From positions 165,073-229,072 of the IMG/VR virus record IMGVR_UViG_3300031994_002305: a DNA stretch of 64,000 bases; one strand, given 5' to 3'. Numbering within the stretch: position 1 is the first letter of the stretch; the number at the start of each line of letters is the position of its first letter. Source of the DNA: a virus (Duplodnaviria > Heunggongvirae > Uroviricota > Caudoviricetes). Below the pieces are notes generated by a model, which saw nothing but the letters and a program-made list of their open reading frames with translations, did no database searches and was not told where the DNA came from. Below are positions 11,379-64,000 of the stretch, in pieces. The translations under genes and the position numbers were made by a program.

Positions 11379-11429
11379 ATATTAAAAATTATTTTTATAT
11401 AATAGAAATATATGTAGTTAATTTAATTA

Positions 11430-14761: not shown

Positions 14762-14775
14762 TCGGTTCCTTTTAT
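14750..14775 (+). terminator. weak hairpin terminator (ggaac ... gttcc + T-rich)
   Basis: 5-bp GC-containing stem overlapping the stop codon, followed by TTTTATTATTTTT. Confidence 0.3.
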
Positions 14776-14806
14776 TATTTTTATTTAAAGCTATTATTTT
14801 ATACAA

Positions 14807-16130: not shown

Positions 16131-16146
16131 ATACATATAAATTAAT

Positions 16147-17854: not shown

Positions 17855-17866
17855 TAAATAAAAGAA

Positions 17867-19027: not shown

Positions 19028-19065
19028 GTATATATATTTATTTTTATATATAAATTTATACTCTT

Positions 19066-20402: not shown

Positions 20403-20432
20403 AGATCTATATATCAATATAGGTCTTTTTTA
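20403..20432 (+). terminator. rho-independent terminator (agatctatat-atca-atataggtct + TTTTTT)
   Basis: 10-bp stem with one G-U pair and a T6 tail. Confidence 0.5.
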
Positions 20433-20457
20433 TTTTTATATATATATTATATGAATC

Positions 20458-26448: not shown

Positions 26449-26513
26449 AAATTAATATAGCTTAATATTTATACCTAATACTTTCTATTTTTATATAAAA
26501 GACTATTTTATAT

Positions 26514-28032: not shown

Positions 28033-28041
28033 AATTTTTCT

Positions 28042-28087
28042 AATATTATTTGAATTTTATTTTAAAGGTACTATATTATAATTGTAA
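28042..28087 (+). promoter_or_regulatory. promoter cassette class A variant (AATATTATTTGAATTTT - N - CTATATTATAATTGTAA)
   Basis: Same 24-nt TTTG to TAtaATTG spacing. Lies upstream of the higher-GC gene 28122. Confidence 0.4.
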
Positions 28088-28442: not shown

Positions 28443-28477
28443 GGGTAAGAGGAATCTGTATAAGAATCTTCTTACCC
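28443..28477 (+). terminator. hairpin (gggtaaga ... tcttaccc) preceding promoter cassette
   Basis: 8-9-bp GC-containing stem with a 19-nt loop. Directly followed by TTTGAATATTTTTTATTTTTTT. Confidence 0.45.
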
Positions 28478-28519
28478 ATTTGAATATTTTTTATTTTTTT
28501 CTATATTATATTTTGTAAA
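28478..28519 (+). promoter_or_regulatory. promoter cassette class A (TTTGAA - 24 nt - TAtaTTTTG; core CTATATTATATTTTGTAAA)
   Basis: Conserved core. Ends about 19 nt before ATG 28539. Confidence 0.5.
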
Positions 28520-28538
28520 ATCAAATAAACAAACATAT

Positions 28539-33118: not shown

Positions 33119-33186
33119 GTTGTTTATAACATTGATTCATAATTTTTTATTTTATTTTTACTAAATAATATATGATAATTTAAATT

Positions 33187-33852
33187 ATGAATTATGAAGG
33201 AAAATTTGGTACAGTAGATCCACAAGAAGAAGGTAATGCTTTAGATAATTTATTTATAAAAAGTGATGCTCCAGATTTGGCTGATACTGATGAAGCTTTA
33301 GAAACTCCAATATTAGTTATAGATATGGATGATTTAGATAAACGTACATTAGCACGTGCAACTGATATAACTAATAAATTGGCAGCTTATTATTTTGATC
33401 AAAGATATATTGACAACCATCCTTATGTTACCTCAAAAATTACACAAGAAATTGATAATATAAGAAGATTATTAAAGATGCTTTCAGTTAATGAAAAAGC
33501 ACAAGATTCGTTAATATTATCAATTACTTCTAATGCCGCTAAAGGTACTCTTTATACATCATTGACATCTTTACAAAATTCAATGCTTTCAATGCAAGCA
33601 CAGTTGAATTCTTTAACAGAAAAATTAGAAAATATCTTTAAGGAAATGCAAGAAAATTGCGATAAAACATTCCAAGAAAAAGAAAAAGAACAATCAGAAG
33701 ATGGTTCAATGGTTGTTCGTGGTTCACGTGACTTTATTAAGCAAATTGAACAATCTTTAATTGCAGCATCTAAAGAAACTAAAAAAGATGAAAATAAACC
33801 AATGACTGATGAACAATTAGATGCAATTGAATATGCAAAAATCGTTGGTTAA
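33187..33852 (+). CDS. acidic coiled-coil protein
   Basis: ORF of 221 aa, Asp/Glu-rich with predicted coiled coil. Confidence 0.45.
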   Translation: MNYEGKFGTVDPQEEGNALDNLFIKSDAPDLADTDEALETPILVIDMDDLDKRTLARATDITNKLAAYYFDQRYIDNHPYVTSKITQEIDNIRRLLKMLSVNEKAQDSLILSITSNAAKGTLYTSLTSLQNSMLSMQAQLNSLTEKLENIFKEMQENCDKTFQEKEKEQSEDGSMVVRGSRDFIKQIEQSLIAASKETKKDENKPMTDEQLDAIEYAKIVG

Positions 33853-33894
33853 TAATATTATTTTTAATAAATAAGAAATAAGTTTATATTAAAT

Positions 33895-38761: not shown

Positions 38762-38798
38762 AGAACCTATTAAAATATAATAATAGGTTCTTTTTTAT
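38762..38798 (+). terminator. rho-independent terminator (agaacctatta-aaatataa-taataggttct + TTTTTTATTTTT)
   Basis: Perfect 11-bp stem with a T-rich tail. Confidence 0.6.
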
Positions 38799-38833
38799 TT
38801 TTAATTATATAAGAAATTAACATATATTTTATA

Positions 38834-41800: not shown

Positions 41801-44800
41801 TATTTTAATATGGGTTATTATAGTCCACGTATTTTACAAGAACAGAATCAAATTTCATCTGCATTAAATAATGCATCAGGTAAAGATTTCATTGTAACAT
41901 ATGTAGAATTTACTAACTTAGATATGAAAACATTACCTGTTGATGATGGTGTTATTGTTGCAGAAATTCAAGGTGGTAAAGAATATTTCGATTTTTCACA
42001 ATATCATTCAACAATGTTATTACCACAGGATGTACAACAAGGCACCGATAATGGATGTATGTTTGGTGATTTTGTTCCAAAATATGATCCATCTAAACAA
42101 TCAAATGCAGATTTACGTATAAGATATCATATACCTAGATTAGTTGAAGCAATTTCTAAAGCAGGTGGTTATTTATTTGATAATGTATTACATAAACATT
42201 TAGGTGAATACAAATATGGATATAATAAGTATATTGATAGAGGATATGGTTCATCTATATTTGATTCAGCAAACCAAGTTCCAAATTATAAATTACAATA
42301 TGTAAGAGCACCTCAAGAAAGTGATACTGATTTACAATATTTAATTCATAATTTCCAAAAAGATGAACGTGGTCAAATTATTTTAAATTCAAATGGACAA
42401 CCATCAATTGACCCATCATATTATGCTGATGATTATGCAGTTGGACGTTTATTAGATACACATATTGATGAAGGTTTTGATCCTTATCAACGTGGTAATG
42501 ATCCTATATTAGATTATACAAGTGCAACTGAATATTATACTGCATGTATGGGATTTGGTCTTGTTGACTCAGTAATGAAAAACCTTAATGTTAAATCATG
42601 GAATGCAACGTATGTTGAAGGTGCGGATAATTATAAAAATGGTAAATGGTATGTAGCATTTTATGATATGGATACATCATTTGGTAGAGATAATGGTGGT
42701 GCAAAAACTTCTTATTTTGCATTCTCAGATTATTGGAAAACAGGAAAAACTACTGAATTAGAAGAACCAACAATATATAGAGATTTCTATCCAATGTCAG
42801 ATCCAGAAAATCCTAATGTCGTTGGACAATCAATGGCAGAATCTGGATTTGATATACCTTCATCATATTTATTTGCTGTTGCTAAATATGCCCATTTATT
42901 AAATGATGAAAAATCTGATTCATTATTAGTACCAAAAGGTTCAATACCTCACAATATATGGGCTAGATGGAGATGTATCTCAAACAATATAGGAGATATA
43001 TCAGGTCCTGGAACAGGTGAATTAAGATCTGCAGATTATTTCATACAAAAATATTTCATTAGAAATTTAGATAATATCCCTGAACAAATTTGGGCATTAA
43101 ACTATAGACTTAAATATTTAAAACGTATTTCACCAGATTCAACAAATAAATATAACTATACATATAATACTGATGAAAATGGCTCATTTGAAAACCTTAA
43201 TTACATTCCATTCCATGGAAAAGGCATTAATGAGTTACATGAATGGTTAGGTGGTCGTTTACATATATTAGATTCATATTTTAATTTAGAAGGTAATGAT
43301 AAATTAAATATTAAGTATCTTGAATATACTGAAAATGAATCTAATGAAAATAATCCTAAATTTACACCTATAATAAGATTAGATAGTGTACAAGGTTATA
43401 AATATAATGATATTGATACTCCTAATGCAGATAGTAATGGTAATTATAAATGGTTATCATCATCTTATAATGATAAAATTCCAGATATAACTCCTGATGT
43501 ATTAGGTTCAAATAAAGATATTGAAATATTAAAGGATATATTTTCAATAAATGGAAATGGTGCACGTTATTCGCAACCTATTGATATTTATATAAAATCA
43601 CAAGAATTTTCACCATTTAACATTACAACAGCTATGGGTGAAAAATATAAATATTTATTGGAAGATCCTGACACCGAATATCACATATCATATAAACCTA
43701 GAGGATTAGTTATCACAAAATTTGGTGGTTCGACTCTTTGGACATATATTAGAAATCTTAATACAGTAATTAATGAAAATACATTAACATTAAATACTGA
43801 AAACTTAGATCAAATTGTATTAACAAAAGGTAAATGTAGTACTTATAATATATCAGCGATGAAATCATTAAAAATTGTAAGTATTATTAAGGATTTATAT
43901 GATAATGATTCACAGTTTACTGGAACTTTAACATTTGCATTAGATGCGAATAATACTGACCCATATCCTGATTTAACAATAATTGAATTAATAAGAACAG
44001 AAATAACATTAACATGTAATGGTGTTGGTGTATCAGTAATTAATTTATCTAATACACAATCAACCGACACAAAAATTATAAACTGTAAAAACTTAGAATC
44101 AGTTAACTTATCAGGATTTACTGCTCCTTCTTTGGATATTATGCCAGGATGGTCAAATGATATGGAAATTAATTTATCAAAAGTTAATAAGATAAAAATT
44201 AGTCCTAAAGATAAAACAGCTAACGAACGTAAAATTTCTATTAAAAATGACTTAAAATTAACAACAGTCATATTGGAAGATTTTACTCATATTTCTTTAG
44301 CATATTGTCCTAACTTATATAATATTTGCATATTAAATCCTGAACATGTAGAATCTTTAGAGATAATAAAATGTAATACTGATTCAAAAGCTAATCATAA
44401 TTTACATATTTATTTTAATGAATTAGATGAATCATCAGAAAATGATTCAACAACAATTGACTTAAAACAATTAACAAATATTCGTTCATTTAAATTTAAT
44501 GGTACAGGTGGATTCAATACATTAGATGCATCAGAATCAGATGGTGAACAAATTACTATTAATGGAAATACATATAACTGTTTAAAATTATATGGAGATG
44601 CCTTCTCAGGAACATCTTTAGAAAGAATAATAACTAAACCTAATGTATATTTATATATTAATAGTGATAATATCAATGGAACTACTGGAACATTTAATGA
44701 TTCAAATTATGGATCATATCCTAATAAAATGATTATTGGTAAAAATGTTAAAAAATTAGATTCATTATTTAAACATGATTTGGGTGGTACTTTAACTTCA

Positions 44801-47326
44801 TCACCTCATATAGATAGTGGTTTTGTTGCTGATTTTATTAATTGTAATGAAGATTTGGTAATATTTGAAAATATTGATAATATTGTTTCATTAAATGGAT
44901 TATTCTATGGACAAACACGTGTCGCTAATAGTAAAACTAATCATCCATTTACATTAAATAAATTTAAGAATGTAAATGATATTAGCTATTTATTCTTCGG
45001 TACAAGTATATTTACATATAATAAAGATATATTTGGTACTGATGATAACTATTGTGGTATGAATGTTATACAGAACAATGGAGAATTTAAGTTAGATAAC
45101 TTTATACCTTCTGGTTCAAATATTGACGTAAATTTATTTGATTATTACATCAATAATATTAAATGTTTAATTTCTGATAATGATTATATCCAAGTTAGAT
45201 TAAATATTTATAATGATGGTGATGTTGTACAAATTAAAAATTTATTTAGTAATTTAAATTATGATACAAATATTTTAGAATCATTTGAAGGATTTGTTAT
45301 TAATGATATGGATGGTGTTGATTATGCCGACTTGTTATATGACCATACAACTAATAAATTTAAATTCCCTAAGTTAAAATCAATTAAAAACTCATTTAAT
45401 AACTTAAATAAGTATAGTATTAATTTTAATAGAATTGGATTGTATGAATATGATATGTCAAAATTAACATTATATAATTCATTTAATTTCTCTAACGAAA
45501 ATATCGAAAAAATGAACATTACGCAAATAATTAATTTTGATACATTTGCAAATAATTCACTATTACCTTGGCATGATAGTATTTATTCATTAAATGGTGC
45601 AAAGGAAATATATGAATCTGATTTATTAATATTATTAAAGAAGTTAAACACTAAAAAATGCATTACATTAAATAACTTATTTAAAAATACAAATATTATT
45701 ATTGATGATGATAAAGTAAATAAAAATGAATTAATATTACATTCATCAGATATAGTTGAACCTTATATATTTAGAGCATGTAACGGATTATTTAAAAATG
45801 CAAAATTAGTAGATAGAAATAATGTAGAATATGGCATAGAAATTACATCTAATACTTTAAGTAAGTTTACTAATGTTGAAACATGGACAGAAGCATTTAT
45901 GGGATGTACATTACATAAGAATTTGCCATTAAATATGTTTAATTTAAAAACGGGATTAGGTGATTATAAAATTGACTATTATACAGAAAAACATAAAAAC
46001 TTATCATTAATGTTTGCTGATGTCAAATTAGATTCAAATGAATCTTGGTTTAATTATAATTGGACTCCTGAAGATTATACAAAATATAATAATGGCATAG
46101 AATTAAATGGATCATATAGAAAAAATATTACTACATTAGAAGGTACAGTAATTTCAAATTATGAATGTAAAGATAATTATGTACAAAATGGCATTACTGT
46201 TTATGGAGAACATATTGTTAAAAACTTAATATTACCTTGGGATATATTTTATGGTTGTACATCAAATTGTAATATTGATGGCTTCATTGCAAATTCTGAA
46301 TTTGAAGGAATATTACCTACAAATCTATTCCCTAAAAATACTAAGTTATATAATTTAAGTTTTTCAAATACATTTAAAGATGTATTAGTAATTCCTAATT
46401 TTGTAAATGATATAATTATTGAATATGTAAATAAATCACTTGCAAATACTGTATGTTATGTTAAGTGTCCAGGATATGTATTTATACCTGAATATTTCAC
46501 AAATTCTACTGATTTAACATGTTCATTTAACTTTAAAATGTTATTACCTAACAGTGAATCTTTAGATAGAGTTAATTCTGATAAAATACATAATATTCCT
46601 AATAATGGTATTAATAAGACAATAGATAACGTTGATTCAATTGAATTGTATTTTGTATTACAAGATAATTCAGTTAGCTTTGGTAATTTAACATCTATTA
46701 AAGACTTTTTACCTTATGATAATGTTATTACATTATATGATGAACTTAATCAAACAACAATTGAAAAATCATTGCATACTTTAGATACTAGTATTAGAGC
46801 AAATCAAGATAATATATTTAATGCAAGAACTGATTATGGAATTCATTATTATATGTATTTAAATAAAGAATTATTATCAACATCAGATTCTTCATATCCT
46901 TGGGTTGAAGTAATTATTAAAGATTCTACTGATAATGATGTTACAATATATGAAGCATTTAATAAAGATGAAACTGATACAGGATTACCAATTGTTAATA
47001 ATACAAAATTATTATATGATTCAATATTTAATGATGATATAATATCATTTACTTATGGAAATATCATTACACGTGGTTTTAATCTATATAATGTTCAACC
47101 AATTAGTGGATCTAGTCCATTTATTAATATAAGTGCTATATGGTCTGATTTTGGAAAGAATATTATATTACCTTTAAATGAAAGAGGTGCAGGAGTATAT
47201 TATGATAATGTATTTAATTTAGGTAGCAATTTAGTTAAGCATATTAGCATAGATAATATCGACCGTAAACAACAAACATCATTAGATAACTATGCTGAAC
47301 ATAGATTAATTGATATTGATTATTAA
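38834..47326 (+). CDS. giant protein (2830 aa), putative virion structural protein (fibre/baseplate/ejected protein)
   Basis: Uninterrupted 8.5-kb ORF, N/Y/S/T-rich, followed by the terminator at 47341. No catalytic motif was found; the canonical two-barrel RNAP DxDGD box is absent. Confidence 0.55.
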   Translation: MKLHNNENDSFIITSNDILVNGDKSDVLTNVINKQEDKLTSLERNIKWLYKYGGTGSKGSGSSNGVSFSVDANVLFGNIIIQKSINQKLILSNSNKKYETLSISLNKTNILNIYQARITGTGFSQSKWYDLTQDNDYGLSFNVPVDDTGTIKIEIKGTSTLTGDNDNATYLFTYIKNPYVFNLSLIDNNDKNILDGDNLYVNEAIEKGVNLFIDYNIVSSKQISYEITCDETMLTNYEGIINDSEHGVGLGNLSIPFNSSFISNDNNYGSHTINIKFKIDPDESLGISNGQIITKNISFTYIPNNQIFFKIESTNNKAKIYKYSETNYNNAIIQFNLYKSYYEYFKILENEQELDPVIREGLINTLVDESLRPSITDNQLKDVIENKLNEIESELYIFNVGSLQLYLQAYLGSNTLNTVDVSYILDDGENIIDNELLSSLQYRKRQMINIPVQEEGVYKLCIYSKNQTEQQRIYYYFAAFDKNSGINWYNADVEFNEIDLFFKEGKIGTHHETNLSLNCLNTIKNYESVQKIQKYANGEPSQLFDISNELNLLAQPDCDIMLSFGIQYSYINSDNVKLMSILTNNNNSSLNLDIYQNRINEYNSSNTLAKIFIPKEHNYAPSNNENYHLLTLYKRYVYETNSPYYEIIIYIDGCPEAAFKNFVKDSSCWSSVYLNNSNFSLNFFELAYFQHNKNSLKRFDKNETSGTVTQNKVTYLDDIAISEYYYKYISTHKSLGNIISLLANLRNFKETDYGMIEVASRNDIDSIANGIDIPVLLLEYTDQSDNEFVNWFTKSYKETELTKDKKKLDYIYYSSGLNKLSQIDLPDELAGSYWYAALQGSSTGELFDKNLTLGINNQTPGRMGIFTPNFYDVNETLFNSNNLTEEEQTIVSKAKNSFLPETAYTLKADVVDSSHSNNTAVGAFVNANTTQFNILFDGGNTNKGNNKYVNYIKNCLLGFPVLVFANVNRNGKSTYYFLGIYNFNLGRDSYFNMGYYSPRILQEQNQISSALNNASGKDFIVTYVEFTNLDMKTLPVDDGVIVAEIQGGKEYFDFSQYHSTMLLPQDVQQGTDNGCMFGDFVPKYDPSKQSNADLRIRYHIPRLVEAISKAGGYLFDNVLHKHLGEYKYGYNKYIDRGYGSSIFDSANQVPNYKLQYVRAPQESDTDLQYLIHNFQKDERGQIILNSNGQPSIDPSYYADDYAVGRLLDTHIDEGFDPYQRGNDPILDYTSATEYYTACMGFGLVDSVMKNLNVKSWNATYVEGADNYKNGKWYVAFYDMDTSFGRDNGGAKTSYFAFSDYWKTGKTTELEEPTIYRDFYPMSDPENPNVVGQSMAESGFDIPSSYLFAVAKYAHLLNDEKSDSLLVPKGSIPHNIWARWRCISNNIGDISGPGTGELRSADYFIQKYFIRNLDNIPEQIWALNYRLKYLKRISPDSTNKYNYTYNTDENGSFENLNYIPFHGKGINELHEWLGGRLHILDSYFNLEGNDKLNIKYLEYTENESNENNPKFTPIIRLDSVQGYKYNDIDTPNADSNGNYKWLSSSYNDKIPDITPDVLGSNKDIEILKDIFSINGNGARYSQPIDIYIKSQEFSPFNITTAMGEKYKYLLEDPDTEYHISYKPRGLVITKFGGSTLWTYIRNLNTVINENTLTLNTENLDQIVLTKGKCSTYNISAMKSLKIVSIIKDLYDNDSQFTGTLTFALDANNTDPYPDLTIIELIRTEITLTCNGVGVSVINLSNTQSTDTKIINCKNLESVNLSGFTAPSLDIMPGWSNDMEINLSKVNKIKISPKDKTANERKISIKNDLKLTTVILEDFTHISLAYCPNLYNICILNPEHVESLEIIKCNTDSKANHNLHIYFNELDESSENDSTTIDLKQLTNIRSFKFNGTGGFNTLDASESDGEQITINGNTYNCLKLYGDAFSGTSLERIITKPNVYLYINSDNINGTTGTFNDSNYGSYPNKMIIGKNVKKLDSLFKHDLGGTLTSSPHIDSGFVADFINCNEDLVIFENIDNIVSLNGLFYGQTRVANSKTNHPFTLNKFKNVNDISYLFFGTSIFTYNKDIFGTDDNYCGMNVIQNNGEFKLDNFIPSGSNIDVNLFDYYINNIKCLISDNDYIQVRLNIYNDGDVVQIKNLFSNLNYDTNILESFEGFVINDMDGVDYADLLYDHTTNKFKFPKLKSIKNSFNNLNKYSINFNRIGLYEYDMSKLTLYNSFNFSNENIEKMNITQIINFDTFANNSLLPWHDSIYSLNGAKEIYESDLLILLKKLNTKKCITLNNLFKNTNIIIDDDKVNKNELILHSSDIVEPYIFRACNGLFKNAKLVDRNNVEYGIEITSNTLSKFTNVETWTEAFMGCTLHKNLPLNMFNLKTGLGDYKIDYYTEKHKNLSLMFADVKLDSNESWFNYNWTPEDYTKYNNGIELNGSYRKNITTLEGTVISNYECKDNYVQNGITVYGEHIVKNLILPWDIFYGCTSNCNIDGFIANSEFEGILPTNLFPKNTKLYNLSFSNTFKDVLVIPNFVNDIIIEYVNKSLANTVCYVKCPGYVFIPEYFTNSTDLTCSFNFKMLLPNSESLDRVNSDKIHNIPNNGINKTIDNVDSIELYFVLQDNSVSFGNLTSIKDFLPYDNVITLYDELNQTTIEKSLHTLDTSIRANQDNIFNARTDYGIHYYMYLNKELLSTSDSSYPWVEVIIKDSTDNDVTIYEAFNKDETDTGLPIVNNTKLLYDSIFNDDIISFTYGNIITRGFNLYNVQPISGSSPFINISAIWSDFGKNIILPLNERGAGVYYDNVFNLGSNLVKHISIDNIDRKQQTSLDNYAEHRLIDIDY

Positions 47327-47340
47327 TTATTATAAAGTAT

Positions 47341-47370
47341 AAAATGGTATTTCTTATGCCATTTTATACT
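47341..47370 (+). terminator. rho-independent terminator (aaaatggtat-ttctt-atgccatttt + T-rich)
   Basis: 10-bp stem with one G-U pair, followed by TTATACTTTTTATT. Confidence 0.55.
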
Positions 47371-47381
47371 TTTTATTATAT

Positions 47382-47406
47382 AAATTTTTATTTTTATTTA
47401 AATATG
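47382..47406 (+). promoter_or_regulatory. class-B (late-like) promoter motif AAATTTTTATTTTTATTTAAAT
   Basis: Near-identical 22-mers lie upstream of the protease/scaffold (47382), MCP (49115) and sheath (51101) genes. The tube gene (54283) has a related motif. It contains a TATAAAT-like box. Confidence 0.45.
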
Positions 47407-47479
47407 TTAACATAATAACAGTAAGTTATTTATTTTTATTTGATATTTATTTATAACAAAAATATTGGAATACAATAAT

Positions 47480-49093
47480 ATGACAAATAAACGTTGCTTG
47501 ATCTATGAAACATTGGGTGAAGTTAAACAATTACAAGTTTCTGAAGCAGCAGCGCCTAAAGGTATGATGAGACTTGAAGGTGTATTTGGCGTATGTGGTA
47601 TTAAGAATCAAAATAATCGTGTTTATGATAAAGAAAACTACCGTCAAATGGTAGAATCTTTACAAGCAGTTATTAAAGAATCTGGTTGTCCTGGTGAATT
47701 GGAACATCCAAATTCAATGAATATCAATCTTGAAAATGTTTCACACAAGATTGAAGATATTCAAATGAATGAAGATGGAACTATCACAGGTACAATTCTT
47801 TTATTAAATACCCCTAAAGGTCAAATAGCTCAAGCCATTGTAGAAGGTGGTCTTCCACTTTATATTTCATCTCGTGGTGCTGGTACTATTACTAATGAAG
47901 GTAAAGTTACTTTATCTACAATCAAAACTTATGACTTAGTTGGTACACCTGGTTTCAGTCAAGCCAAATTAACTCTTAAGCAAAATCAAACTTTAGAATG
48001 TTTAAATGAATCTGCTGAAGAAGGTAATGTTATTTATGCTATTGTTGAAGGTGAAGAATCTAAAACAGATGATAACGAAGATCCTAAAAAAGAAGATTCT
48101 AAAAAAGAAGACGATAACAAAAATAAAGATAATGGTAAAGTAGATATGAAAGAACTTAAAGAAGCTATCGATAAGCTTACTGAGAAGGTTACTTCTCTTG
48201 AGGCTGAACTTCATGTAGCTCAAGAATCTTTAAATGAAGCAAAATCTATCAAACCAACTAATTATGATGCTATTCAACAATGGGTAACTGAAGAATTCTG
48301 GCCTGCATATAAGAATCAGATCCAAATTCCTGAAGGTGTATCTATGGAAGATATTGAAACAATGGTTGATGCTAAATTAAGTGAATCAATTAATACAATA
48401 GCTGAAGGTGTTGAAAGTTGGGTTGTTGAAGAATTTGCCCCAGAAGTACAGAACTGGGTAGTTGAAGAATTTGCTCCAGAAGTACAGAATTGGGTAGTTG
48501 AAGAATTCGCTCCAGAAGTTCAGAACTGGGTAGTTGAAGAATTTGCTCCAGAAGTTCAAAATTGGATTGTTGAAGAATATTCACCAGAAGTACAAGGTTG
48601 GATTACTGAAGAATTTGCACCAGTTGTTGAAGGTTGGATTAATGAAGAATTCGCTCCTGAACACAAACAACAAATTGAAGAAGCTGTAAATGCTAATGTA
48701 TCTGCATTTATGGAATCACAAAAGGCTGGTCGTCTTGATGAAATTGATAGTTTATTAGAATCAATTGCTCAAGATGGTAATAATGATGTTAATAAGATTG
48801 TTGCTGAACAACAAAAAGAAAACAAGTACAAAGGAATTTATGTAGTAGAAAGCATGCCTGCTGAATATACTGCATCTTGGGAATTACTTGATGAAGCTCG
48901 TCAACAAGAAATTATTCGCACTTCTAAGATGTATGACTTCACAAAAGAAGGAGTACTTGAATCATTCTGGGCTAATGTAGATTTTAATAAGACTACAAAA
49001 ACTGAAAGAATCAACGAAAATAATAACCCAGTTGATAACTATCAAATGAATATTGTTAACAGAATGAGATCACTTCGTGGTTTATATGCTTAA
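47480..49093 (+). CDS. prohead protease (HK97/T4 gp21-like) fused to acidic scaffold-like domain with 13-aa tandem repeats
   Basis: The N-terminal approx. 170 aa ('RLEGVFGVCGIKNQNNRVYDKENY ... GELEHP') resemble HK97-family prohead protease motifs. The remainder is an acidic coiled coil with 7 x 'W(V/I)VEEFAPEVQN'. It lies directly upstream of the MCP. The start is moved from track TTG 47465 to ATG 47480. Confidence 0.45.
   Translation: MTNKRCLIYETLGEVKQLQVSEAAAPKGMMRLEGVFGVCGIKNQNNRVYDKENYRQMVESLQAVIKESGCPGELEHPNSMNINLENVSHKIEDIQMNEDGTITGTILLLNTPKGQIAQAIVEGGLPLYISSRGAGTITNEGKVTLSTIKTYDLVGTPGFSQAKLTLKQNQTLECLNESAEEGNVIYAIVEGEESKTDDNEDPKKEDSKKEDDNKNKDNGKVDMKELKEAIDKLTEKVTSLEAELHVAQESLNEAKSIKPTNYDAIQQWVTEEFWPAYKNQIQIPEGVSMEDIETMVDAKLSESINTIAEGVESWVVEEFAPEVQNWVVEEFAPEVQNWVVEEFAPEVQNWVVEEFAPEVQNWIVEEYSPEVQGWITEEFAPVVEGWINEEFAPEHKQQIEEAVNANVSAFMESQKAGRLDEIDSLLESIAQDGNNDVNKIVAEQQKENKYKGIYVVESMPAEYTASWELLDEARQQEIIRTSKMYDFTKEGVLESFWANVDFNKTTKTERINENNNPVDNYQMNIVNRMRSLRGLYA
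48419..48691 (+). repeat. 7 tandem copies of a 39-bp repeat encoding W(V/I)xEE(F/Y)(A/S)PEVQ(N/G)
   Basis: Copies start at 48419, 48458, 48497, 48536, 48575, 48614 and 48653. The first four are nearly identical at the DNA level. Confidence 0.8.
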
Positions 49094-49114
49094 ATAATAT
49101 TCTATCTGAAAAGA

Positions 49115-49138
49115 AAATTTTTATTTTTATATAAATTT
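49115..49138 (+). promoter_or_regulatory. class-B (late-like) promoter motif AAATTTTTATTTTTATATAAATTT
   Basis: Matches the 47382 and 51101 motifs. Lies 53 nt upstream of the MCP ATG. Confidence 0.45.
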
Positions 49139-49190
49139 AATATATAATTCTCAAAAGAGAAATAACAAATAAATTTTGATTATAAATAAT

Positions 49191-50951
49191 ATGTATAATG
49201 AACAAAATGGCGCAGTTACATGGGAAAAAATGTTGAAAGAAAACTTCAACGTTAATGACCAGGAAAAACTTAACTGGGTTTCTCAATATGCTGCTATTCA
49301 CGAAATTCATGAATCTCAATTAGGTATTAACGGTGGTAATGTAGTTCCATCTGCAGCTCATCCTGGAGTTAACCCATTATATGCTACACCAATGAATACT
49401 CTTGGTATTGGCAATCCTACAGCTCCAAGTCAATTAGATCCAATGAGCACAGCACCTTATAATGCTGCAAATCCTACAGGTTCATTCTGGGGACAAACTC
49501 CTGGTTCTGGTGATATTCCAGTATCAACACTTCCAATGGCTCTTAATATTGCTTTATTAACTATTGGTCTTGAACTTGTTCCTGTTATCCCTTCAAAGGG
49601 TCCTTGGGCTATGTTAACATATATGGACTTCCCTTACGCTGGTGGTAAACTTGGTCGTATCAATGAAACTTCATTTGATGGTAAAGGCGAAGGTAACGAA
49701 AACAAGCCTATTTATATTAAGATTAAGGGTCTTACTCTTACTCAAATCGCTGGTATCCGTGAAAAGATGGAAGACGGCACAGTTAAAGCTGATACTGCTG
49801 TTGAAGTAGGTGATTTCAAAGGTAAGTTCATTTCTCTTGGTCGTATGGATGCTTGCCCACTTGTTAAAGTTGTAGAAAGTGGTTCTAAATCAATCCGTGA
49901 AGCTTTTGCTACTGCAACTGCTGTTAAGTTAGGTACATATACAATCACATTAGCTGAAGCTGCTGAAGGTAAAGCTGCTCAAGCTGTTGAAGCTGACTTC
50001 GTACAAACTTCTGTAGATCTTGTTGATGGTTTTGCTAACTTCTTCGATGGTGGTAAGAATCCTATGACACGTGCTCAGAACGAAACTGGTACAGGTAATG
50101 TAATTGGTCTTCGTTTATTCAGCAAGTGGATCCAAATGGGTTCATACGAAGTAACTGGTACTGTTACACGTCAACAATTACAAGATCTTCCATTATATGG
50201 TGTTGATGCCGTATCTAAAGTTATGGAAGCTCTTCAAAACGAAATTACACAACACATCAACCAACGTATCCTTGAAAGAGTATTTGCTCTTGGTGTTACT
50301 AACGCTGTTCAACAAAAGGCTCGTCAAGGTGTAGACCTTAACTTATGGATGGGTGCTCATGGTGATACTGCATTCGCTACAGCTTTCGCTGGTGTACCTC
50401 ACTTCACAGATATCTATGGTCATGATCATAAGGCAACTTGGGGTAATGTTAAGAATGCTGAAGTTAATACTTCTGCTGAAAATCTTGCAACACGTCAACG
50501 TCGTATCATGTCTAAGGTTCTTGCTGCTGCTAACTTGATTCAATTAGTAGGTCGTCGTGGTCGTCCAACATGGATCGTAACAAACGGTCAAGTTGCTACT
50601 GCTTTACAAGACGTATCTGGTTATGTTGTAGCTCCAATGCTTAACACAATGTCTCAAGCTAATACACAGAACTTATACCACGCAGGTACTGTTGCTGGTC
50701 TTCAAGTTTACGTAGATCCTTACATGGACTGGAATGATACTCGTATCTGTATCGGTCGTAAGGGTGATGGTAATTCACCTGGTGTAATCTTCATGCCTTA
50801 TATCCTTGCTGATACAGTTTCTATTACTGCAGAAGGTACAATGGCTCCTAAGATGTTAGTTAACAGCCGTTACACTATTGCTGAAGCTGGTTTCTATCCA
50901 GAATTACAATATCTTACAATTGCTGTTGGCTCAGAATTCGGAATTATCTAA
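49191..50951 (+). CDS. putative major capsid protein
   Basis: Position directly after the protease/scaffold gene and before the tail sheath. The codon usage is GC-richer, as for highly expressed genes. It is Ala/Gly/Val/Thr-rich and about 586 aa. The N-terminal 'AAIHEIHESQ' has I-x-E sites consistent with T4-like propeptide processing. Followed by a very strong terminator. The start is moved from TTG 49176 to ATG 49191. Confidence 0.5.
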   Translation: MYNEQNGAVTWEKMLKENFNVNDQEKLNWVSQYAAIHEIHESQLGINGGNVVPSAAHPGVNPLYATPMNTLGIGNPTAPSQLDPMSTAPYNAANPTGSFWGQTPGSGDIPVSTLPMALNIALLTIGLELVPVIPSKGPWAMLTYMDFPYAGGKLGRINETSFDGKGEGNENKPIYIKIKGLTLTQIAGIREKMEDGTVKADTAVEVGDFKGKFISLGRMDACPLVKVVESGSKSIREAFATATAVKLGTYTITLAEAAEGKAAQAVEADFVQTSVDLVDGFANFFDGGKNPMTRAQNETGTGNVIGLRLFSKWIQMGSYEVTGTVTRQQLQDLPLYGVDAVSKVMEALQNEITQHINQRILERVFALGVTNAVQQKARQGVDLNLWMGAHGDTAFATAFAGVPHFTDIYGHDHKATWGNVKNAEVNTSAENLATRQRRIMSKVLAAANLIQLVGRRGRPTWIVTNGQVATALQDVSGYVVAPMLNTMSQANTQNLYHAGTVAGLQVYVDPYMDWNDTRICIGRKGDGNSPGVIFMPYILADTVSITAEGTMAPKMLVNSRYTIAEAGFYPELQYLTIAVGSEFGII

Positions 50952-51012
50952 ACAATATAAGAGACAATATCTCGCCTCTATATATTAATCCGATTCGTAA
51001 GAATCAAAAAAT

Positions 51013-51039
51013 GGACAGTTCGTGAGAACTGTCCTTTTT
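51013..51039 (+). terminator. rho-independent terminator (ggacagttc-gtga-gaactgtcc + TTTTT)
   Basis: Perfect 9-bp GC-rich stem, a GTGA tetraloop and a T5 tail, directly after the MCP gene. Confidence 0.7.
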
Positions 51040-51100
51040 AGTTTATTTCTTATTATCTATAATAATAAACAGGAATAAAGTTTTTTCAATTAGATCATAA

Positions 51101-51123
51101 AAATTTTATTTTTATTTAAATTG
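51101..51123 (+). promoter_or_regulatory. class-B (late-like) promoter motif AAATTTTATTTTTATTTAAATTG
   Basis: Conserved with the motifs at 47382 and 49115. Lies 75 nt upstream of the sheath ATG. Confidence 0.45.
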
Positions 51124-51197
51124 TATTTACTAAATAGGCTAATAAGCTTTAATAAATTACAATTAAGAATATAATAAATATAAAAAGATATACAAAT

Positions 51198-54100
51198 ATG
51201 GCAATTCCAGTACATTTGCAACAATTTAAAGCCGCAGGTATTTACCGTGTTGTTTTTGATCATTCTGCTGTTTTAAACCAAGATACTCAAATGCTTAGAT
51301 TAGTTGTTGGCTATTCTGAGGTTGGTCCTTTTAATGTACCAGTTTTGGTTAAAGACTCAACAGAATTTATCGCTTTATTCGGTAATATATCTAAAAAGCT
51401 TGAAAAACGTGGTATTTATTTCCACCGTTTAGCTTTACAGATGTTACAAGTAAGTCCAATTCTTTGTCTTAATCTTAAGAAATTTGATGGTGAAACAGTT
51501 CAAGGTGCTACAATCAGCACAGACTTTAATCCAAAGTTCACACCAATTGACACTGTTACTCTCAATGTAGAAGACATTTACGATACAACTCGTTTCTGGA
51601 CACTTGACGCATTAAAGCTTAATGGATTACGTTCTGTTGAAGGTGCATTAATGGATCAATACATTAATATATCTGCTACAAACGTAAAAGCAACATCTGC
51701 TACATATTTTATTCGTAAAGCTAGTGGCACAAAAGTTGCAGGCTATAACATTACAGTTAATGATTGGTATTCTGATGAAGAAATGCCTGAGTTCTTAGAA
51801 AAATATAAGAACAATTTAATTTCTGACTTCTTTGCAGAAATATATGTATTTAAAGGAAAATTTGAAGCTAAACAGGTTCTTGCATCTAATACATTAAAGA
51901 ATTATTTTATTGTAACAAATGAACTTGATGAAGATGGTAATCAAATACTTAAACTTCGCGATAAAGTAATTAATGCTTTCGGTGAATCTGTTGATACACT
52001 TGATGCATTATACAAAGATGAAACATCAGGAGCTTTAGGTCACTATGTTGGTTCAATTATTCCTTACTTCAAGAATAAGCAAGGTGCATATGCATGTCTT
52101 GATGTTATTTTCAATAGCGACCAAGAAACTCACAATATGATGCTTGCTTTCAATAATGATTTACTTGAAGAAGAAAATGCTGCTAATTTAGATCTTTCAG
52201 GTCGTTTATTAATTCCTACAGCAGCTAATCCTAATAAAGCAAATACATCATTAAGTCTTAAAAAGATTTATGAAGGTAATGCTACTACAACAGTTTTAGG
52301 TAATGTTGGTGCACCAGTTATTGCTGATGTTATTACATTCCATACAAACGTATATGATCCTGAAACACAAACTGCTGTACAAGACATATTCATTGGTAAA
52401 ACACGTATTGCTGGTACACTTTATGTTAAGGGTATTCTTAATGATTTAGATGTTGCTGCTGGTAAAGCTGGTCAAATCAAGCTTGCTCAAGTAGGTACAG
52501 AACAAGAAATTGTTATGACATTCTTCAATAACGTTGGAGAAGCAAACAAGACTATTGAAGCTGCTAAGAAACTTGGTGTTGAATTTGATAAAGATGGTAA
52601 TCCAATAGAAGGAAAAGGTACATATTGGCCTGCTGGAGATGCATTCCTTAATGCTAATGATCCACTTGCTGGTCCTCAAAAGGTTATTACTGCTCTTTCA
52701 CGTCTTGAAAATAAAGCTGAAGATGGCCAAGTTTATACTGATATTGATGAAAACATGAAACCTTCATTAAAAGCAGTTGAAGTTATGACAAATGCAAAAT
52801 TTGTAAATACTAATACTGTTGGAGCTGAATCTGTTTATGGTTCATCTGTTTCATTCATCGATTACACAGATAATAACTGGACATACGTCGAAGATGCTGA
52901 AATTATTAAGGGTGTTAAACAAGCTGCACTTATAGGTACTGCTGAATATGATACATCACTTATTAATGTTCTCCAAAAGGGCGATTGTATTTTAGCTAAA
53001 GATAATACAGTTGATTATAATGATAATGGAGAAGACGACGATACTGATGGATATGAAGACAATGTATATGTTCAAGATTTTGGTACAGTATATAATGAAG
53101 ATGGTTCATTCAAATTCTATTATGTACTTCTTTCTGCAGAACCATATCTTTACGAAATACGTGATGAAGAAACTGGTGCTTTACTTAACCAAAGCTTAGT
53201 TCGTGTAGATGCAGCTCTTAACCAAGAAATTGGTACAATGGTTCCTCAATATCTTGAAGGTTATACATATAAGAACGATCGTCCACTTGGAACTGGTATG
53301 TATGCTAAAGTTAAATGGCAAGAATTTATTTTCAAAGCATTAACTGATTATAAAGGTCTTCGTACAGGTCTTCTTAATAAGTCTGAAATTGATTATCGTT
53401 ATGTAATTGATACATTCGAATCATTCCCTGTAACAAATCTTAAGAGTGTTCTTTCATTCTTATGTAAAGAAAAACAATCTGCATTCTGTATTGCAAACTT
53501 CCCATCAGTACAAAACTTTATCAAGTGTCCTTACACTTCATTTACTGATAGCAAGGGTGTATTCAATGTAGAATATGTTGTTAAAGGTTTCAATAAGAAG
53601 AAAGCTGCTTCAATGATGTTCAGCTTACCAAGTGAAAATGATGGTGCTAGCTTCGTAGCATTCTATTCTCCATTAAAGTTCTCTGATGGTTATCTAGATA
53701 CAATAGTTCCATCTGCAGGTCTTGTATCTAACTTATTCGTTAATAAGTATATGACACGTCAACCATACTATATCGTTGCAGGTCCTAACTTCGGTAGTAT
53801 TACTGCATCTGGTCTTATTGGTCCTGACTACAAGTACTCACAAGATGAATTACAAATCATTGAACCATTTGGTGTTAACGTAATGGTATACCGTCCAAAC
53901 TTCGGTACATTCATTAATGCTAACCAAACAGCTAAGCAATCTCCAGTTTCAGCATTATCTAAGGTTAATGTTCGTGAACTTGTTATTTACTTACAAGATG
54001 AAATTGAAAAGGTTCTTCAACAATATCAATGGGAATTCAATAACCAACGTACACGTAATGCTATTCTTGATAGAGCTAATCAAATCTGCGCAATAATTGC

Positions 54101-54284
54101 AGCTAATGGTGGTATTCAAGCTTACAAGAATATCATGGATGAATCTAATAATGGTCCTGAAATCATTGATAACGAAATGGCTGTTATTACAACTCACATC
54201 GAACCAGGTATGGGTTGCGGTAAGATGGTACAAGAATTACACATCTGGAGAACTGGTCAGATGGCAGCAAATATTTCAGAATAA
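51198..54284 (+). CDS. tail sheath protein (contractile tail)
   Basis: The N-terminus 'AAGIYRVVFDHS ... LRLVVGYSEVGPFNVPVLVKDSTEFIALFG' follows the conserved sheath N-terminal pattern (PGVYxxExD ... vG ... GP-N-P-LV-S---F---FG). The gene is large (1028 aa) and immediately followed by a tube-sized gene. Confidence 0.55.
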   Translation: MAIPVHLQQFKAAGIYRVVFDHSAVLNQDTQMLRLVVGYSEVGPFNVPVLVKDSTEFIALFGNISKKLEKRGIYFHRLALQMLQVSPILCLNLKKFDGETVQGATISTDFNPKFTPIDTVTLNVEDIYDTTRFWTLDALKLNGLRSVEGALMDQYINISATNVKATSATYFIRKASGTKVAGYNITVNDWYSDEEMPEFLEKYKNNLISDFFAEIYVFKGKFEAKQVLASNTLKNYFIVTNELDEDGNQILKLRDKVINAFGESVDTLDALYKDETSGALGHYVGSIIPYFKNKQGAYACLDVIFNSDQETHNMMLAFNNDLLEEENAANLDLSGRLLIPTAANPNKANTSLSLKKIYEGNATTTVLGNVGAPVIADVITFHTNVYDPETQTAVQDIFIGKTRIAGTLYVKGILNDLDVAAGKAGQIKLAQVGTEQEIVMTFFNNVGEANKTIEAAKKLGVEFDKDGNPIEGKGTYWPAGDAFLNANDPLAGPQKVITALSRLENKAEDGQVYTDIDENMKPSLKAVEVMTNAKFVNTNTVGAESVYGSSVSFIDYTDNNWTYVEDAEIIKGVKQAALIGTAEYDTSLINVLQKGDCILAKDNTVDYNDNGEDDDTDGYEDNVYVQDFGTVYNEDGSFKFYYVLLSAEPYLYEIRDEETGALLNQSLVRVDAALNQEIGTMVPQYLEGYTYKNDRPLGTGMYAKVKWQEFIFKALTDYKGLRTGLLNKSEIDYRYVIDTFESFPVTNLKSVLSFLCKEKQSAFCIANFPSVQNFIKCPYTSFTDSKGVFNVEYVVKGFNKKKAASMMFSLPSENDGASFVAFYSPLKFSDGYLDTIVPSAGLVSNLFVNKYMTRQPYYIVAGPNFGSITASGLIGPDYKYSQDELQIIEPFGVNVMVYRPNFGTFINANQTAKQSPVSALSKVNVRELVIYLQDEIEKVLQQYQWEFNNQRTRNAILDRANQICAIIAANGGIQAYKNIMDESNNGPEIIDNEMAVITTHIEPGMGCGKMVQELHIWRTGQMAANISE

Positions 54285-54302
54285 TTTATTTTTATATAAA
54301 AG
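54283..54302 (+). promoter_or_regulatory. class-B-like motif AATTTATTTTTATATAAAAG
   Basis: Lies upstream of the tail tube gene and contains TATAAAA. Confidence 0.35.
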
Positions 54303-54334
54303 ATTGGGTATTCATAGTAATATCCAATCTTTAT
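54301..54334 (+). terminator. hairpin (agattgg ... ccaatct) after sheath gene
   Basis: 7-bp stem extendable to 10 with one mismatch, followed by TTTATAAAAAG. Probably a partial terminator. Confidence 0.35.
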
Positions 54335-54382
54335 AAAAAGTTTGAAAACGTTTTAAAAAATATATATTCATGAATATAATTT

Positions 54383-54967
54383 ATGGCTAATAATTTAACA
54401 CACTTACCTCATATATTGAATGTTGAATCAGGACGTATGAAATATGATCCAGTTCACAAGTCAATATTTGAAGTATATTTCACATTGCCAGCAGCTATCC
54501 AATCACAATTTGCAGCAGAAGAACTTATACTTACTGAACAAGTAACTACAGTATCTGGTCTTGATGTTCTTCAGAAGACAACTCCAGCATCTGCACAAAA
54601 CTTCTATGGTGTAACTGTATCTTACTTAAATCCTGTATTTGATACAACAGCTGCAGATATTACTATTAACTTCAACCTTAACCTTAAGAACGTAACAGAT
54701 AACTTCGTATTGAAAGTATTCCGTGCTTGGGAAAATATTTCATATAATCTTGCAGACGGTACTCGTTCAATTAAGACAGGTTATATTACAGATAACTTAC
54801 GTATAGCTGAAGCTAACCGTAATGGTGATATTTGGAGAAGCTATATCTTCCACCATGTAATGCTTACTGGTGTTACAGGTCTTGAAGATTTGGACTATAT
54901 GTCAAATGATGCTCGTCAACTTACTGCAACATTCCGTTGCGACTATTGGGAAGACGAATTATCTTAA
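54383..54967 (+). CDS. tail tube protein
   Basis: Protein of 194 aa immediately downstream of the sheath gene, in T4 gp18-gp19 order. Beta-rich composition. Followed by a bidirectional terminator. Confidence 0.5.
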   Translation: MANNLTHLPHILNVESGRMKYDPVHKSIFEVYFTLPAAIQSQFAAEELILTEQVTTVSGLDVLQKTTPASAQNFYGVTVSYLNPVFDTTAADITINFNLNLKNVTDNFVLKVFRAWENISYNLADGTRSIKTGYITDNLRIAEANRNGDIWRSYIFHHVMLTGVTGLEDLDYMSNDARQLTATFRCDYWEDELS

Positions 54968-54987: not shown

Positions 54988-55019
54988 TAAAAAGCTGGTA
55001 CTTAAGTACCAGCTTTTAT
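54988..55019. terminator. bidirectional terminator, perfect palindrome aaaagctggtac-ttaa-gtaccagctttt
   Basis: 10-bp stem flanked by A-run and T-run on both strands, between the convergent genes ending at 54967 (+) and 55016 (-). Confidence 0.7.
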
Positions 55020-62606: not shown

Positions 62607-62677
62607 AATTCATTTATAATATATTTGATTTAAAAATAGTAAAAGAAAGTTAATAAGTTCAATATAATTAATATAAA

Positions 62678-62719
62678 ATTTGAAATATTTATATTTATTT
62701 CTATATTATATTTGTATTA
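62678..62719 (+). promoter_or_regulatory. promoter cassette class A (TTTGAA - 24 nt - CTATATTATATTTGTATTAATC) in divergent intergenic region
   Basis: Conserved core. Downstream lies only a 4-codon ORF, then about 190 nt of leader before the ATG at 62915. Confidence 0.45.
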
Positions 62720-62914
62720 ATCAAACAGGAATAAATATGTATGTTACTTAAAGTTCATTAATGTAAATAATCACTGATATTATTATTTATTTTTAATAAA
62801 TCTATTTAGGATAATTGAGACATTAACATTATTTAACGGAAATAATTTTTATATATAAAATATTTTGGTTAATTTTGTACTGTCAAAGTTAATAAAAAAT
62901 TAATTAAATAAATT

Positions 62915-64000
62915 ATGAAAAAAATTACAGAAGGAGCAAGTAAAGTAAATTTTGAAGTACAAAAAAATACAATTAACTACATCAGTGAAGCAGATCTTAA
63001 AAAGTATTTGGACGTAGCTGGTAATTTCTTGTCTGAAGAAACAAAGGAATTAGTTCAATGGCTTATTGTGAATAATAAGACATACATTTCTGATTTGTCA
63101 ACTGATGATGATGAAAATGCTCTTGCAGGATTTTATAAAGCAGGAGTTCCTAAGAAGGAAAACCTTAAAGAGCTTTATAAGTTAATGGGTGTAATCATTA
63201 AGAGTGGTCGTACTCTTGAAATTCCTGTTTTCCAAACAAAGGATCAATTTGAAAAAATTATTAATAAACAAATTGCTCCAGATAAAATATTTTTAGATTT
63301 GGATTCTAAAAAAGGTCGTGAAGCTGTAACTAAAAAATATGAACCACTTGCACATCGTGTTGCTAGACAATGGCTAGGTAAGATTAATCTTCCTTATGAC
63401 GATATTTTAAGTTGTTGTTATGAAGGTCTTACTTATGCAATGAATACTTATGGTAAAAAGAATAAGAAATCTAAGGCAGATGATGAAGCAGTAAAAAGTT
63501 ATACATTCGGCCAATATGCTGCATATTGTATGCTTAACCACATTAGAGGTTATGGTGTTTATTATTCTCATATCGTAAAAATTCCTAATGCTGAACAAAA
63601 GAAAGAACGTGAGGAAAAAGGTCATAATACAAAAACACTTTCAGTATCTGGTGATAAAGTAGTAGGTCACAATGATGAAGGCAATAAAACAATATTTGAT
63701 TTTATTAGTTCATCAAATGATGCTGAATCTGGTGTTAATGCTGAAGATCGTAAAAAATTGTATGATGATATTTTGAAGATTCTTTTGGGAGAATTTGATA
63801 AAAAAATTATTGATATCTGGTGTAGTTATTGGGGTGTATATGATCATAAGAAATTAATGAATAAAGATATTGCTAAAAAATATAATGTAGCAAATTCTAA
63901 CATTACATATTATTGTCAAAAGGTAAATAATTTTATTCGTAAAAATAAAAAGATTCTTGGATTATTTAATGAACTTTATGAACTACTTAAAGAATCAATT
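62915..64000 (+). CDS. sigma-70-family RNA polymerase sigma factor-like protein (3'-partial, runs off window)
   Basis: Open from ATG 62915 to the window end (362 codons, no stop). 'DDILSCCYEGLTYAMNTYG ... YTFGQYAAYCMLNHIRGYGVYYSHIVKIPNA' resembles sigma region 2 ('DLIQEGNIGLMKAVDKF ... YKFSTYATWWIRQAITR ... RTIRIPVH'). 'KLMNKDIAKKYNVANSNITYYCQKVNNFIRKNKK' resembles the region 4.2 HTH. Confidence 0.5.
   Translation, partial: MKKITEGASKVNFEVQKNTINYISEADLKKYLDVAGNFLSEETKELVQWLIVNNKTYISDLSTDDDENALAGFYKAGVPKKENLKELYKLMGVIIKSGRTLEIPVFQTKDQFEKIINKQIAPDKIFLDLDSKKGREAVTKKYEPLAHRVARQWLGKINLPYDDILSCCYEGLTYAMNTYGKKNKKSKADDEAVKSYTFGQYAAYCMLNHIRGYGVYYSHIVKIPNAEQKKEREEKGHNTKTLSVSGDKVVGHNDEGNKTIFDFISSSNDAESGVNAEDRKKLYDDILKILLGEFDKKIIDIWCSYWGVYDHKKLMNKDIAKKYNVANSNITYYCQKVNNFIRKNKKILGLFNELYELLKESI

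Follow-up and report, generated by a model that had tools for sequence, protein, structure and literature searches.

The stretch analyzed here, 64,000 nucleotides (nt) of a virus of the class Caudoviricetes (positions 165,073 to 229,072 of IMG/VR record IMGVR_UViG_3300031994_002305; hereafter the window), carries a short motif, termed class B, that is oriented, intergenic, clade-specific, and conserved at orthologous genes. Its consensus, aaaawtTTATTTTTAwwTAAAt, contains an invariant 9-mer, TTATTTTTA; two A/T bases and then TAAA(T) usually come next. From these sequence data we infer promoter function, timing, and a reading factor: class B is very probably a phage-specific promoter of the ordinary kind, it appears to fit better as a phage middle/late class that is strongest at virion genes, and it is probably a single-block promoter served by the host core polymerase together with a phage specificity factor, most likely a sigma of 386 amino acids (aa) encoded at 62915. 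The DNA inspected comprises ~75 kb (the window and its flanks) of a genome possibly reaching 376-442 kb, and the relatives compared with it are 16 IMG/VR loci (L001-L016) with 48-93% capsid identity, taken from contigs of up to 435 kb.

The 22-mer pattern AAATTTTTATTTTTATWTAAAT occurs exactly at 47382-47403 and 49115-49136 and with 1 mismatch at 51100-51121, and an A-tract lies ahead of the core in these three strongest copies, which precede the prohead protease, major capsid, and tail sheath genes. The 3' end of the 22-mer lies 76 nt from the ATG of the protease (47480), 54 nt from that of the capsid (49191), and 76 nt from that of the sheath (51198). This agrees with the original prediction, which had near-identical 22-mers 53-80 nt upstream of the three genes, except that the sheath copy given as starting at 51101 starts at 51100. 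The related copies listed there all exist, with TTATTTTTA cores at 54286, 11389, 14775, 19038, 20430, and 38795 and the variant CTATTTTTA at 26486, but the list was incomplete and missed copies at 33152, 33858, 47430, and 62787. The copies in the window, the four main virion genes, and the scores of some copies with a position weight matrix (PWM) are as follows (ORF, open reading frame).

11383..11405, + strand: class B copy preceding a 731-aa ORF (11430)
14769..14791, + strand: class B copy preceding the operon 14807-17784, with 240-aa glucosaminidase-like, peptidase_M15-like, and head-closure-like ORFs
19032..19054, + strand: class B copy preceding a 54-aa ORF (19066)
20424..20446, + strand: class B copy directly 3' of a hairpin, preceding acetyltransferase/cytidylyltransferase genes (20458-21755)
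26480..26502, + strand: one-mismatch copy CTATTTTTATATAAAAG preceding a glycosyltransferase gene (26514); PWM score 8.7
33146..33168, + strand: class B copy preceding a 221-aa ORF (33187; p221)
33852..33874, + strand: class B copy preceding a 1614-aa ORF (33895)
38789..38811, + strand: class B copy directly 3' of a hairpin, preceding a 2830-aa ORF (38834)
47382..47403, + strand: class B copy AAATTTTTATTTTTATTTAAAT, 76 nt before the protease ATG and 10 nt past a terminator-like hairpin; PWM score 14.0
47424..47444, + strand: second, proximal copy in the protease leader, TTATTTTTATTTGAT, without the TAAAT part; PWM score 10.8
ATG at 47480, + strand: prohead protease of the T4 gp21 type (Peptidase_S77; PHROGs and Pfam)
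49115..49136, + strand: class B copy AAATTTTTATTTTTATATAAAT, 54 nt before the capsid ATG, no upstream hairpin; PWM score 13.6
49191-50951, + strand: major capsid protein of the gp23 type (PHROGs and Pfam, Gp23)
51100..51121, + strand: class B copy AAAATTTTATTTTTATTTAAAT, 76 nt before the sheath ATG; PWM score 14.5
51198-54284, + strand: tail sheath, 1028 aa (PHROGs and Pfam)
54280..54302, + strand: class B copy TTATTTTTATATAAAAG, overlapping the sheath stop, 97 nt before the tube ATG, with a hairpin directly 3'; PWM score 15.3
54383-54967, + strand: tail tube (PHROGs and Pfam)
62781..62803, + strand: class B copy 128 nt before the sigma gene and 3' of a class A promoter (~62675-62720)

Over these copies, the distance from motif to start codon ranges from 28 to 128 nt. 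In the aligned instances, information is confined to about -8 to +16 of the core start, and no -35/-33 element is seen upstream. Both the TTTG and the TAnnTTTG elements, by which the original prediction had set apart another promoter class of this DNA, class A, are missing from class B copies; the proposal of a second, distinct class is borne out, in that the motif is oriented, intergenic, and conserved before the main virion genes. In a provisional register, a possible -10 hexamer with A at -11 and T at -7 is TAAATT at the capsid and sheath copies, but the protease copy has TAAATA.

Within the window the 9-mer occurs 16 times, 13 of them intergenic and co-oriented with the next gene, 1 intergenic and anti-oriented, and 2 coding. 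The 13 co-oriented copies fall in 3.8 kb of padded intergenic DNA, versus 1.5 ± 1.3 (maximum, 7) expected from 2000 first-order Markov resamples of the same segments. For the 22-mer pattern there are 4 matches at ≤3 mismatches, a number reached by 0/100 dinucleotide shuffles. Over the window plus the 16 loci (17 sequences), the 9-mer is found 72 times co-oriented and intergenic, 6 times anti-oriented, and 23 times in coding DNA; as controls, 33 permutations of the same composition, none overlapping the motif, give 3-27 co-oriented copies each. A PWM derived solely from eight relatives, to which neither the window nor its close kin contributed, locates 12 sites in the window that are intergenic and co-oriented, plus 3 elsewhere; when the pseudocounts were softened and the threshold set at 8, the tally became 15 co-oriented, 0 anti-oriented, and 9 coding sites.

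These counts bear on the reading in which there is no discrete signal and the motif is a generic AT-rich or UP-like tract, or the U-tract of a terminator. The window is 95% coding, its intergenic DNA is 84% A+T, and about half of the copies lie 0-40 nt past a hairpin, two of them abutting its T-run, as such a reading would have it. Yet 9-mers of the same composition are 3-20 times rarer in co-oriented intergenic DNA, the 13 copies observed stand against 1.5 in the Markov resamples with an intergenic strand bias of 13:1, and the motif is not found as an upstream element of class A promoters. As the capsid copy is the best conserved and has no hairpin upstream, an intrinsic-terminator U-tract was ruled out. 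The generic UP element, which the original prediction had named as what would undo it, is thereby largely refuted by permutation controls, Markov resamples, and the relatives-only PWM, and we give the whole reading a very slight chance.

Conservation follows the genes. Exact TTATTTTTA stands 5' of the capsid gene in 13/16 relatives. The protease copy has an orthologous copy in L001-L010, L012, L013, and L016, and the second copy of the protease leader recurs in L001, L002, L003, and L005 at -52/-53. The sheath copy is kept 5' of the sheath gene in L001-L009 and L012. The 221-aa ORF sits directly 5' of the protease gene in several relatives, and its orthologs in L004, L006, and L009 are also preceded by the motif. 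Relatives with 50-90% protein identity preserve an exact core before protease, capsid, sheath, and p221, amid intergenic DNA that is otherwise unalignable. Just beyond the window are two further copies, one (L022:3690) ahead of a gp13-like neck gene and the other (L020:11238) past the sigma gene. In the L011/L014 lineage a variant, TTATTATTATTTATAA, replaces TTATTTTTAwwTAAAT before protease, capsid, and sheath alike, as expected if sites co-evolve with a single reader.

Outside this group, the nearest database phages by capsid protein show 30-38% identity; they are an uncultured 462-kb phage, Tenacibaculum phages pT24, PTm1, and PTm5, Sphingomonas phage PAU, and the Prevotella Lak megaphages. 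When 47300-54400 was compared with GenBank phages by megablast, nothing matched. The motif is missing 5' of the capsid gene in pT24 and LR756500, the nearest database phages, and is therefore clade-specific; it is confined to a rumen/gut clade (L001-L016 and L033-L038). pT24 has TAnnTTTG-like elements before structural genes. Proteins identical to those of the window are also found on contigs of 0.2-1 Mb, the window itself lying within a 156-kb metagenomic contig (ena:ERZ27256871:k141_359463), and a literature search for the motif sequence yielded nothing relevant.

The recognizable functions behind class B are mostly those of virion or lysis genes. The predicted location before virion genes was confirmed for protease, capsid, sheath, tube, gp13-like neck, and head-closure-like genes, to which the glucosaminidase/peptidase_M15-like ORFs can be added. 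Specificity for structural genes, as originally proposed, is too narrow, since the motif also precedes the glycosyltransferase gene, the acetyltransferase/cytidylyltransferase operon, small ORFs of unknown function, and the sigma gene. Weak variants precede the NDK and dNMP-kinase (deoxynucleoside monophosphate kinase) genes and a - strand helicase/MazG operon.

The late box of T4 is the 8-bp TATAAATA. Over the 17 sequences this word occurs 19 times co-oriented, 19 times anti-oriented, and 107 times in coding DNA, with no orientation or intergenic bias, and its 1 co-oriented copy in the window lies away from class B sites. TATAAAT and TTTAAAT heptamers were rejected as a conserved element because they carry no orientation or intergenic signal; TATAAAT is present within just 2/13 co-oriented intergenic copies of the window. 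The T4-like late promoter of the original prediction thus stands in lacking a -35 partner and falls in its TATAAAT/TATAAATA box. Nor did its gp55-like reader turn up: tblastn with T4 gp55 against the window and related loci gave nothing below E = 1, and PHROG scans of window ORFs of ≥100 aa hit no late-sigma family, the sole sigma being the 386-aa protein. Neither gp33 nor the gp45 clamp is annotated in the window, and no dedicated search for them was made.

A T4-type late promoter could still underlie class B if a gp55-like sigma, a gp33-like co-activator, and a clamp were encoded elsewhere and the box had diverged from TATAAATA. The head module is T4-like (Pfam matches to Peptidase_S77, Gp23, and gp13) and the motif precedes virion genes. 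T4 late promoters consist of a tightly conserved TATA box at about -10, have no -35 element, and are recognized by gp55 together with gp33 and the gp45 clamp (PMC2988020); class B is likewise a single block without a -35. Minimal sigmas and gp33 orthologs are reported in all group 2 jumbo phages, including the nearest Bacteroidota megaphages (PMC7824862), and ~75 kb of a possible 376-442 kb was inspected. Against this stand the unbiased distribution of TATAAATA, an invariant block that is TTATTTTTA instead, and the absence of gp55 and late-sigma matches from the tblastn and PHROG searches. A complete change of box would also be unusual, given the T4-like consensus sequences reported for four T4-related phages, one of them with changed -13/-12 positions (PMC2988020). 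We regard such a promoter as unlikely here.

The sigma-like protein mentioned in the original prediction proved to be a member of the sigma-70 family, by PHROG 351, profile search, and Foldseek.

62915..64000, + strand: phage sigma-70-family gene, 386 aa, PHROG 351; continues for 75 nt beyond the window and is complete in L017 and L020

The ORF matches PHROG 351 "RNA polymerase sigma factor" (E = 4.6e-13). Single-sequence searches with it returned no Pfam and no PDB match, and tblastn against GenBank phages returned none. A profile of 20 homologs, some of which carry Pfam Sigma70_r2, matches SigA region 2 and aligns with FliA over regions 2-4 (PDB; E ~6e-5), and the top 50 Foldseek matches of an AlphaFold (AF2) model (mean predicted local distance difference test score, 73) are all sigma factors. 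With an N-terminal extension of ~130 aa, the product is a full-length member of the sigma-70 family. An RNA polymerase gene was not seen in the inspected part (~75 kb); jumbo phages with gp23-type capsids reportedly lack an RNA polymerase of their own and encode sigma factors (PMC7824862). Upstream of the sigma gene lie both a class A promoter (~62675-62720) and a class B copy (62787). Exact TTATTTTTA also stands 5' of sigma orthologs in five further lineages (L033/L034, L035, L036, L037, and L038; 43-72% identity), and class B core and class A-like element occur upstream of sigma orthologs in either order.

Class A sites lie at ~6225-6275, 17805-17855, 28040-28085, 28470-28520, and 62675-62720, as well as at L004:3878, L009:15799, and L011:11889. 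They share TTTGAA ... (C)TATATTATAwT, which can be read as TTGAAw-N16-TATATT, with canonical sigma-70 spacing, or as TTTG-N19-TAtaTTAT, a Bacteroidota-like arrangement. TAnnTTTG alone was rejected as a class A marker, the word being too common in this DNA. A sigma-70 consensus scan of the window found fewer promoter-like sites than in shuffles and is uninformative in DNA this AT-rich.

The proposed scheme may be set out from the reader to its targets. Class B would belong to a single clade of giant myophages, AT-rich and uncultivated, whose head module is of the T4 type. All sequence information of the promoter would reside in ~16-22 bp, spanning roughly -25 to -7 and without a -35/-33 element; the 3' TAAAT(T) is probably a -10-like melting element and TTATTTTTA an extended upstream contact. 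The host core RNA polymerase would read it with a phage-encoded factor, of which the 62915 sigma is the likeliest candidate. Because its gene carries both class A and class B, the sigma would be expressed early from the host-type class A promoter and then sustain itself by positive feedback through its own class B copy. The best matches, those with the A-tract, would drive the most abundant virion genes (protease, capsid, and sheath) through 55-75-nt leaders, and weaker copies would drive other middle/late genes. The switch of SPO1 to phage sigmas is mentioned in PMC13401047. In its fullest form, the scheme holds that this rumen/gut clade, probably infecting Bacteroidota, evolved a code of its own, TTATTTTTAwwTAAAT, read without a -35 element by a divergent sigma with a 130-aa extension, an early-to-late feedback switch, and a non-gp55 program for a T4-like head; we put this forward tentatively, as a possibility that falls short of being probable.

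The host primary sigma alone might also read class B, as an AT-rich promoter of the extended -10 type that would be constitutive or early, with no separate temporal class. Bacteroidota housekeeping promoters have the consensus -33 TTTG/-7 TAnnTTTG. The host of the window is suggested to be of this phylum by its nearest cultured relatives and by the scarcity of Shine-Dalgarno-like words: GGAG, GAGG, AGGA, or AAGG occurs at -20 to -4 in 1/72 ORFs. Upstream regions of window ORFs are A-rich, with peaks at -3, -4, and -7, which indicates that the genes start translation independently of Shine-Dalgarno sequences. Recognition by the host sigma gains from TAAATT, which would keep A(-11)/T(-7) of the -10 hexamer, and from the presence of the motif before non-structural genes and of weak variants before genes of nucleotide metabolism. 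However, class B shows neither the TTTG nor the TAnnTTTG expected of a Bacteroidota host and present before structural genes of the related cultured phage pT24, and it is clade-specific, missing before the capsid gene of pT24 and LR756500. Moreover, a distinct two-box class A, nearer to host consensus types, coexists in the genome, and the coordinated L011/L014 variant points to a phage-borne reader. Recognition by the host sigma alone is accordingly rather improbable.

The 5' ends of some short contigs fall where transcripts would begin. In JGI sample 3300024486, the 3554-nt contig L026 covers 47421-50976, beginning in the protease leader and ending 25 nt beyond the capsid stop. A sheath-plus-tube contig of that sample, L018, has its first base at 51147, within the sheath leader; for two further genes of this genome the sample has no record. 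A third short contig, L031, begins at the capsid-leader hairpin. All three 5' ends lie 10-26 nt downstream of the motif, as those of transcripts would, and contig L030 reads through it; as transcript starts these ends are no more than suggestive. Separately, L018 is identical to the window over sheath and tube until it departs from it 29 nt short of the tube stop and runs on into an array of five tRNA genes (Pro, Glu, Leu, Ile, and Gln; L018 positions 3793-4870). The window has no tRNA, so that either the contig is a chimera of the assembly or the genome exists in a variant arrangement.

Several observations weigh against class B as a middle/late promoter read by the 62915 sigma. Some genes behind it are not obviously late. 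The tube copy (54286) has no counterpart in L001-L005, the closest relatives, and its status is uncertain; in L006, L007, L009, and L011, the copy between sheath and tube is instead placed 3' of the hairpin. In L032, with a sigma 53% identical, there is no intergenic TTATTTTTA in 21 kb. The sigma retains region 4, the usual reader of the -35 box, and class B is a single block, whereas class A has two boxes. The sigma gene bears both motif classes, which makes the argument symmetrical, and the assignment could be reversed, with class A read by the phage sigma instead. The contig ends are equally explained by assembly breaks at the repeated 22-mer, the type of the sample being unconfirmed. Finally, the Bacteroidota host is suggested solely by the nearest cultured relatives and the missing Shine-Dalgarno words.

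Hairpins punctuate the head and tail region.

47334..47372, + strand: terminator-like hairpin after the 2830-aa gene, immediately 5' of the protease motif
51013..51034, bidirectional: terminator-like hairpin after the capsid gene
54300..54331, + strand: hairpin aagattgg...ccaatctt after the sheath stop, without a U-tract
54990..55017, + strand: terminator-like hairpin after the tube gene

Several class B copies follow terminator-like hairpins, at hairpin-to-core distances of 4-71 nt; those of the capsid gene and at 19038, 33858, and 26486 have no hairpin upstream. Between the protease and capsid genes there is no terminator, and gene order suggests the units [motif]-protease-[motif]-capsid-terminator and [motif]-sheath-hairpin-tube-terminator. 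Every relative (L001-L013 spacers) has a strong hairpin 10-25 nt past the sheath stop, with unrelated stem sequences and usually no U-tract. This inter-cistronic hairpin is conserved in structure and is perhaps a partial terminator or an RNA stabilizer.

Such an arrangement invites an explanation at the level of RNA, with class B as a processing or stabilizing site, or a site for an RNA-binding protein, in polycistronic transcripts, acting with the hairpins that follow. Hairpins do lie 5-30 nt 3' of several copies, no terminator separates the protease and capsid genes, and the long leaders of the three main genes hold other conserved elements such as ATAACAAA. Distances to hairpins and start codons nevertheless vary (28-128 nt), many copies lie directly 3' of terminator-like hairpins, where little upstream RNA would arrive, and the motif has no conserved pairing partner. 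An Rfam search of the window found no family. An RNA-level role is therefore highly improbable.

The leaders have features of their own. The second element, ATAACAAA(T/A)A(A)AT, lies at 47453-47465 and 49162-49176 and is present in L001-L014. Its position, ~20-35 nt before the protease and capsid ATG, is near-fixed and independent of the distance to the class B motif. Across loci, ATAACAAA occurs 30 times co-oriented and intergenic and 7 times anti-oriented, and its role may be to signal translation initiation or stability, the phage having no Shine-Dalgarno sites. The capsid leader also has a small hairpin at 49148-49161 (ttctc aaaa gagaa), with equivalents in L001-L014 whose stems differ by lineage (ttatc/gataa, tgtag/ctaca, cttc/gaag, and ttcttg/caagaa) and whose position shifts.

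The window has a G+C content of 20-35%, and its + strand is almost fully coding up to ~57 kb. Three giant ORFs have no PHROG match and no Pfam match above the gathering threshold: one of 1614 aa (33895-38739), with merely weak LTD and NUMOD1 matches; one of 2830 aa (38834-47326); and one of 1603 aa (L022), which enters from the left and ends at 4217. The 2830-aa gene, directly 5' of the protease, is recognizable in L008 only among the 16 relatives and is therefore a variable insertion in the head module. A 708-aa SPFH/Band 7 protein is encoded at 30941-33067, just 5' of the head module, with no class B motif in front.

If class B is a promoter, it provides a usable promoter model for an uncultivated giant-phage clade with genomes of up to ~440 kb, with which operons could be defined and unknown genes sorted into a probable temporal class. 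It would also illustrate that a T4-type head module does not imply the T4-type TATAAATA late promoter. The L011/L014 lineage offers a natural set of promoter variants for testing co-evolution with the reader protein.

Among known systems, the T4 late promoter resembles class B in being a single compact AT-rich block with no -35, placed before head and tail genes of a gp21/gp23/gp13-type module; it differs in conserved sequence, which here is TTATTTTTA plus TAAAT and not TATAAATA, and in its sigma, gp55 having 185 aa and the sole sigma seen here being a 386-aa, full-length member of the sigma-70 family. Bacteroidota housekeeping promoters are likewise AT-rich and used by phages of the probable host phylum (pT24), and class A resembles this type, but class B has neither a TTTG element nor an upstream box. 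The group 2.2 jumbo/mega-phages of Iyer et al. 2021 (Lak, PAU, and pT24) share the gp23-type capsid and the presence of a sigma factor, but class B is missing 5' of the capsid gene in pT24 and LR756500. Single-block sigma-70 promoters without a -35 are known exceptions. The sigma factors gp28 and gp33/34 of Bacillus phage SPO1 redirect the host RNA polymerase to middle and late promoters, and gp36 of coliphage phiEco32 is a phage sigma with a single -10-like element. As in these phages, the sigma gene here would be served by a host-type promoter and a distinct, phage-only consensus precedes later genes; unlike in them, the motif has an unrelated sequence, the sigma is extended N-terminally by 130 aa, and the link between sigma and motif is a proposed one. 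A phage promoter class paired with a phage sigma is thus a well-known kind of system; what is new is the sequence and the clade.

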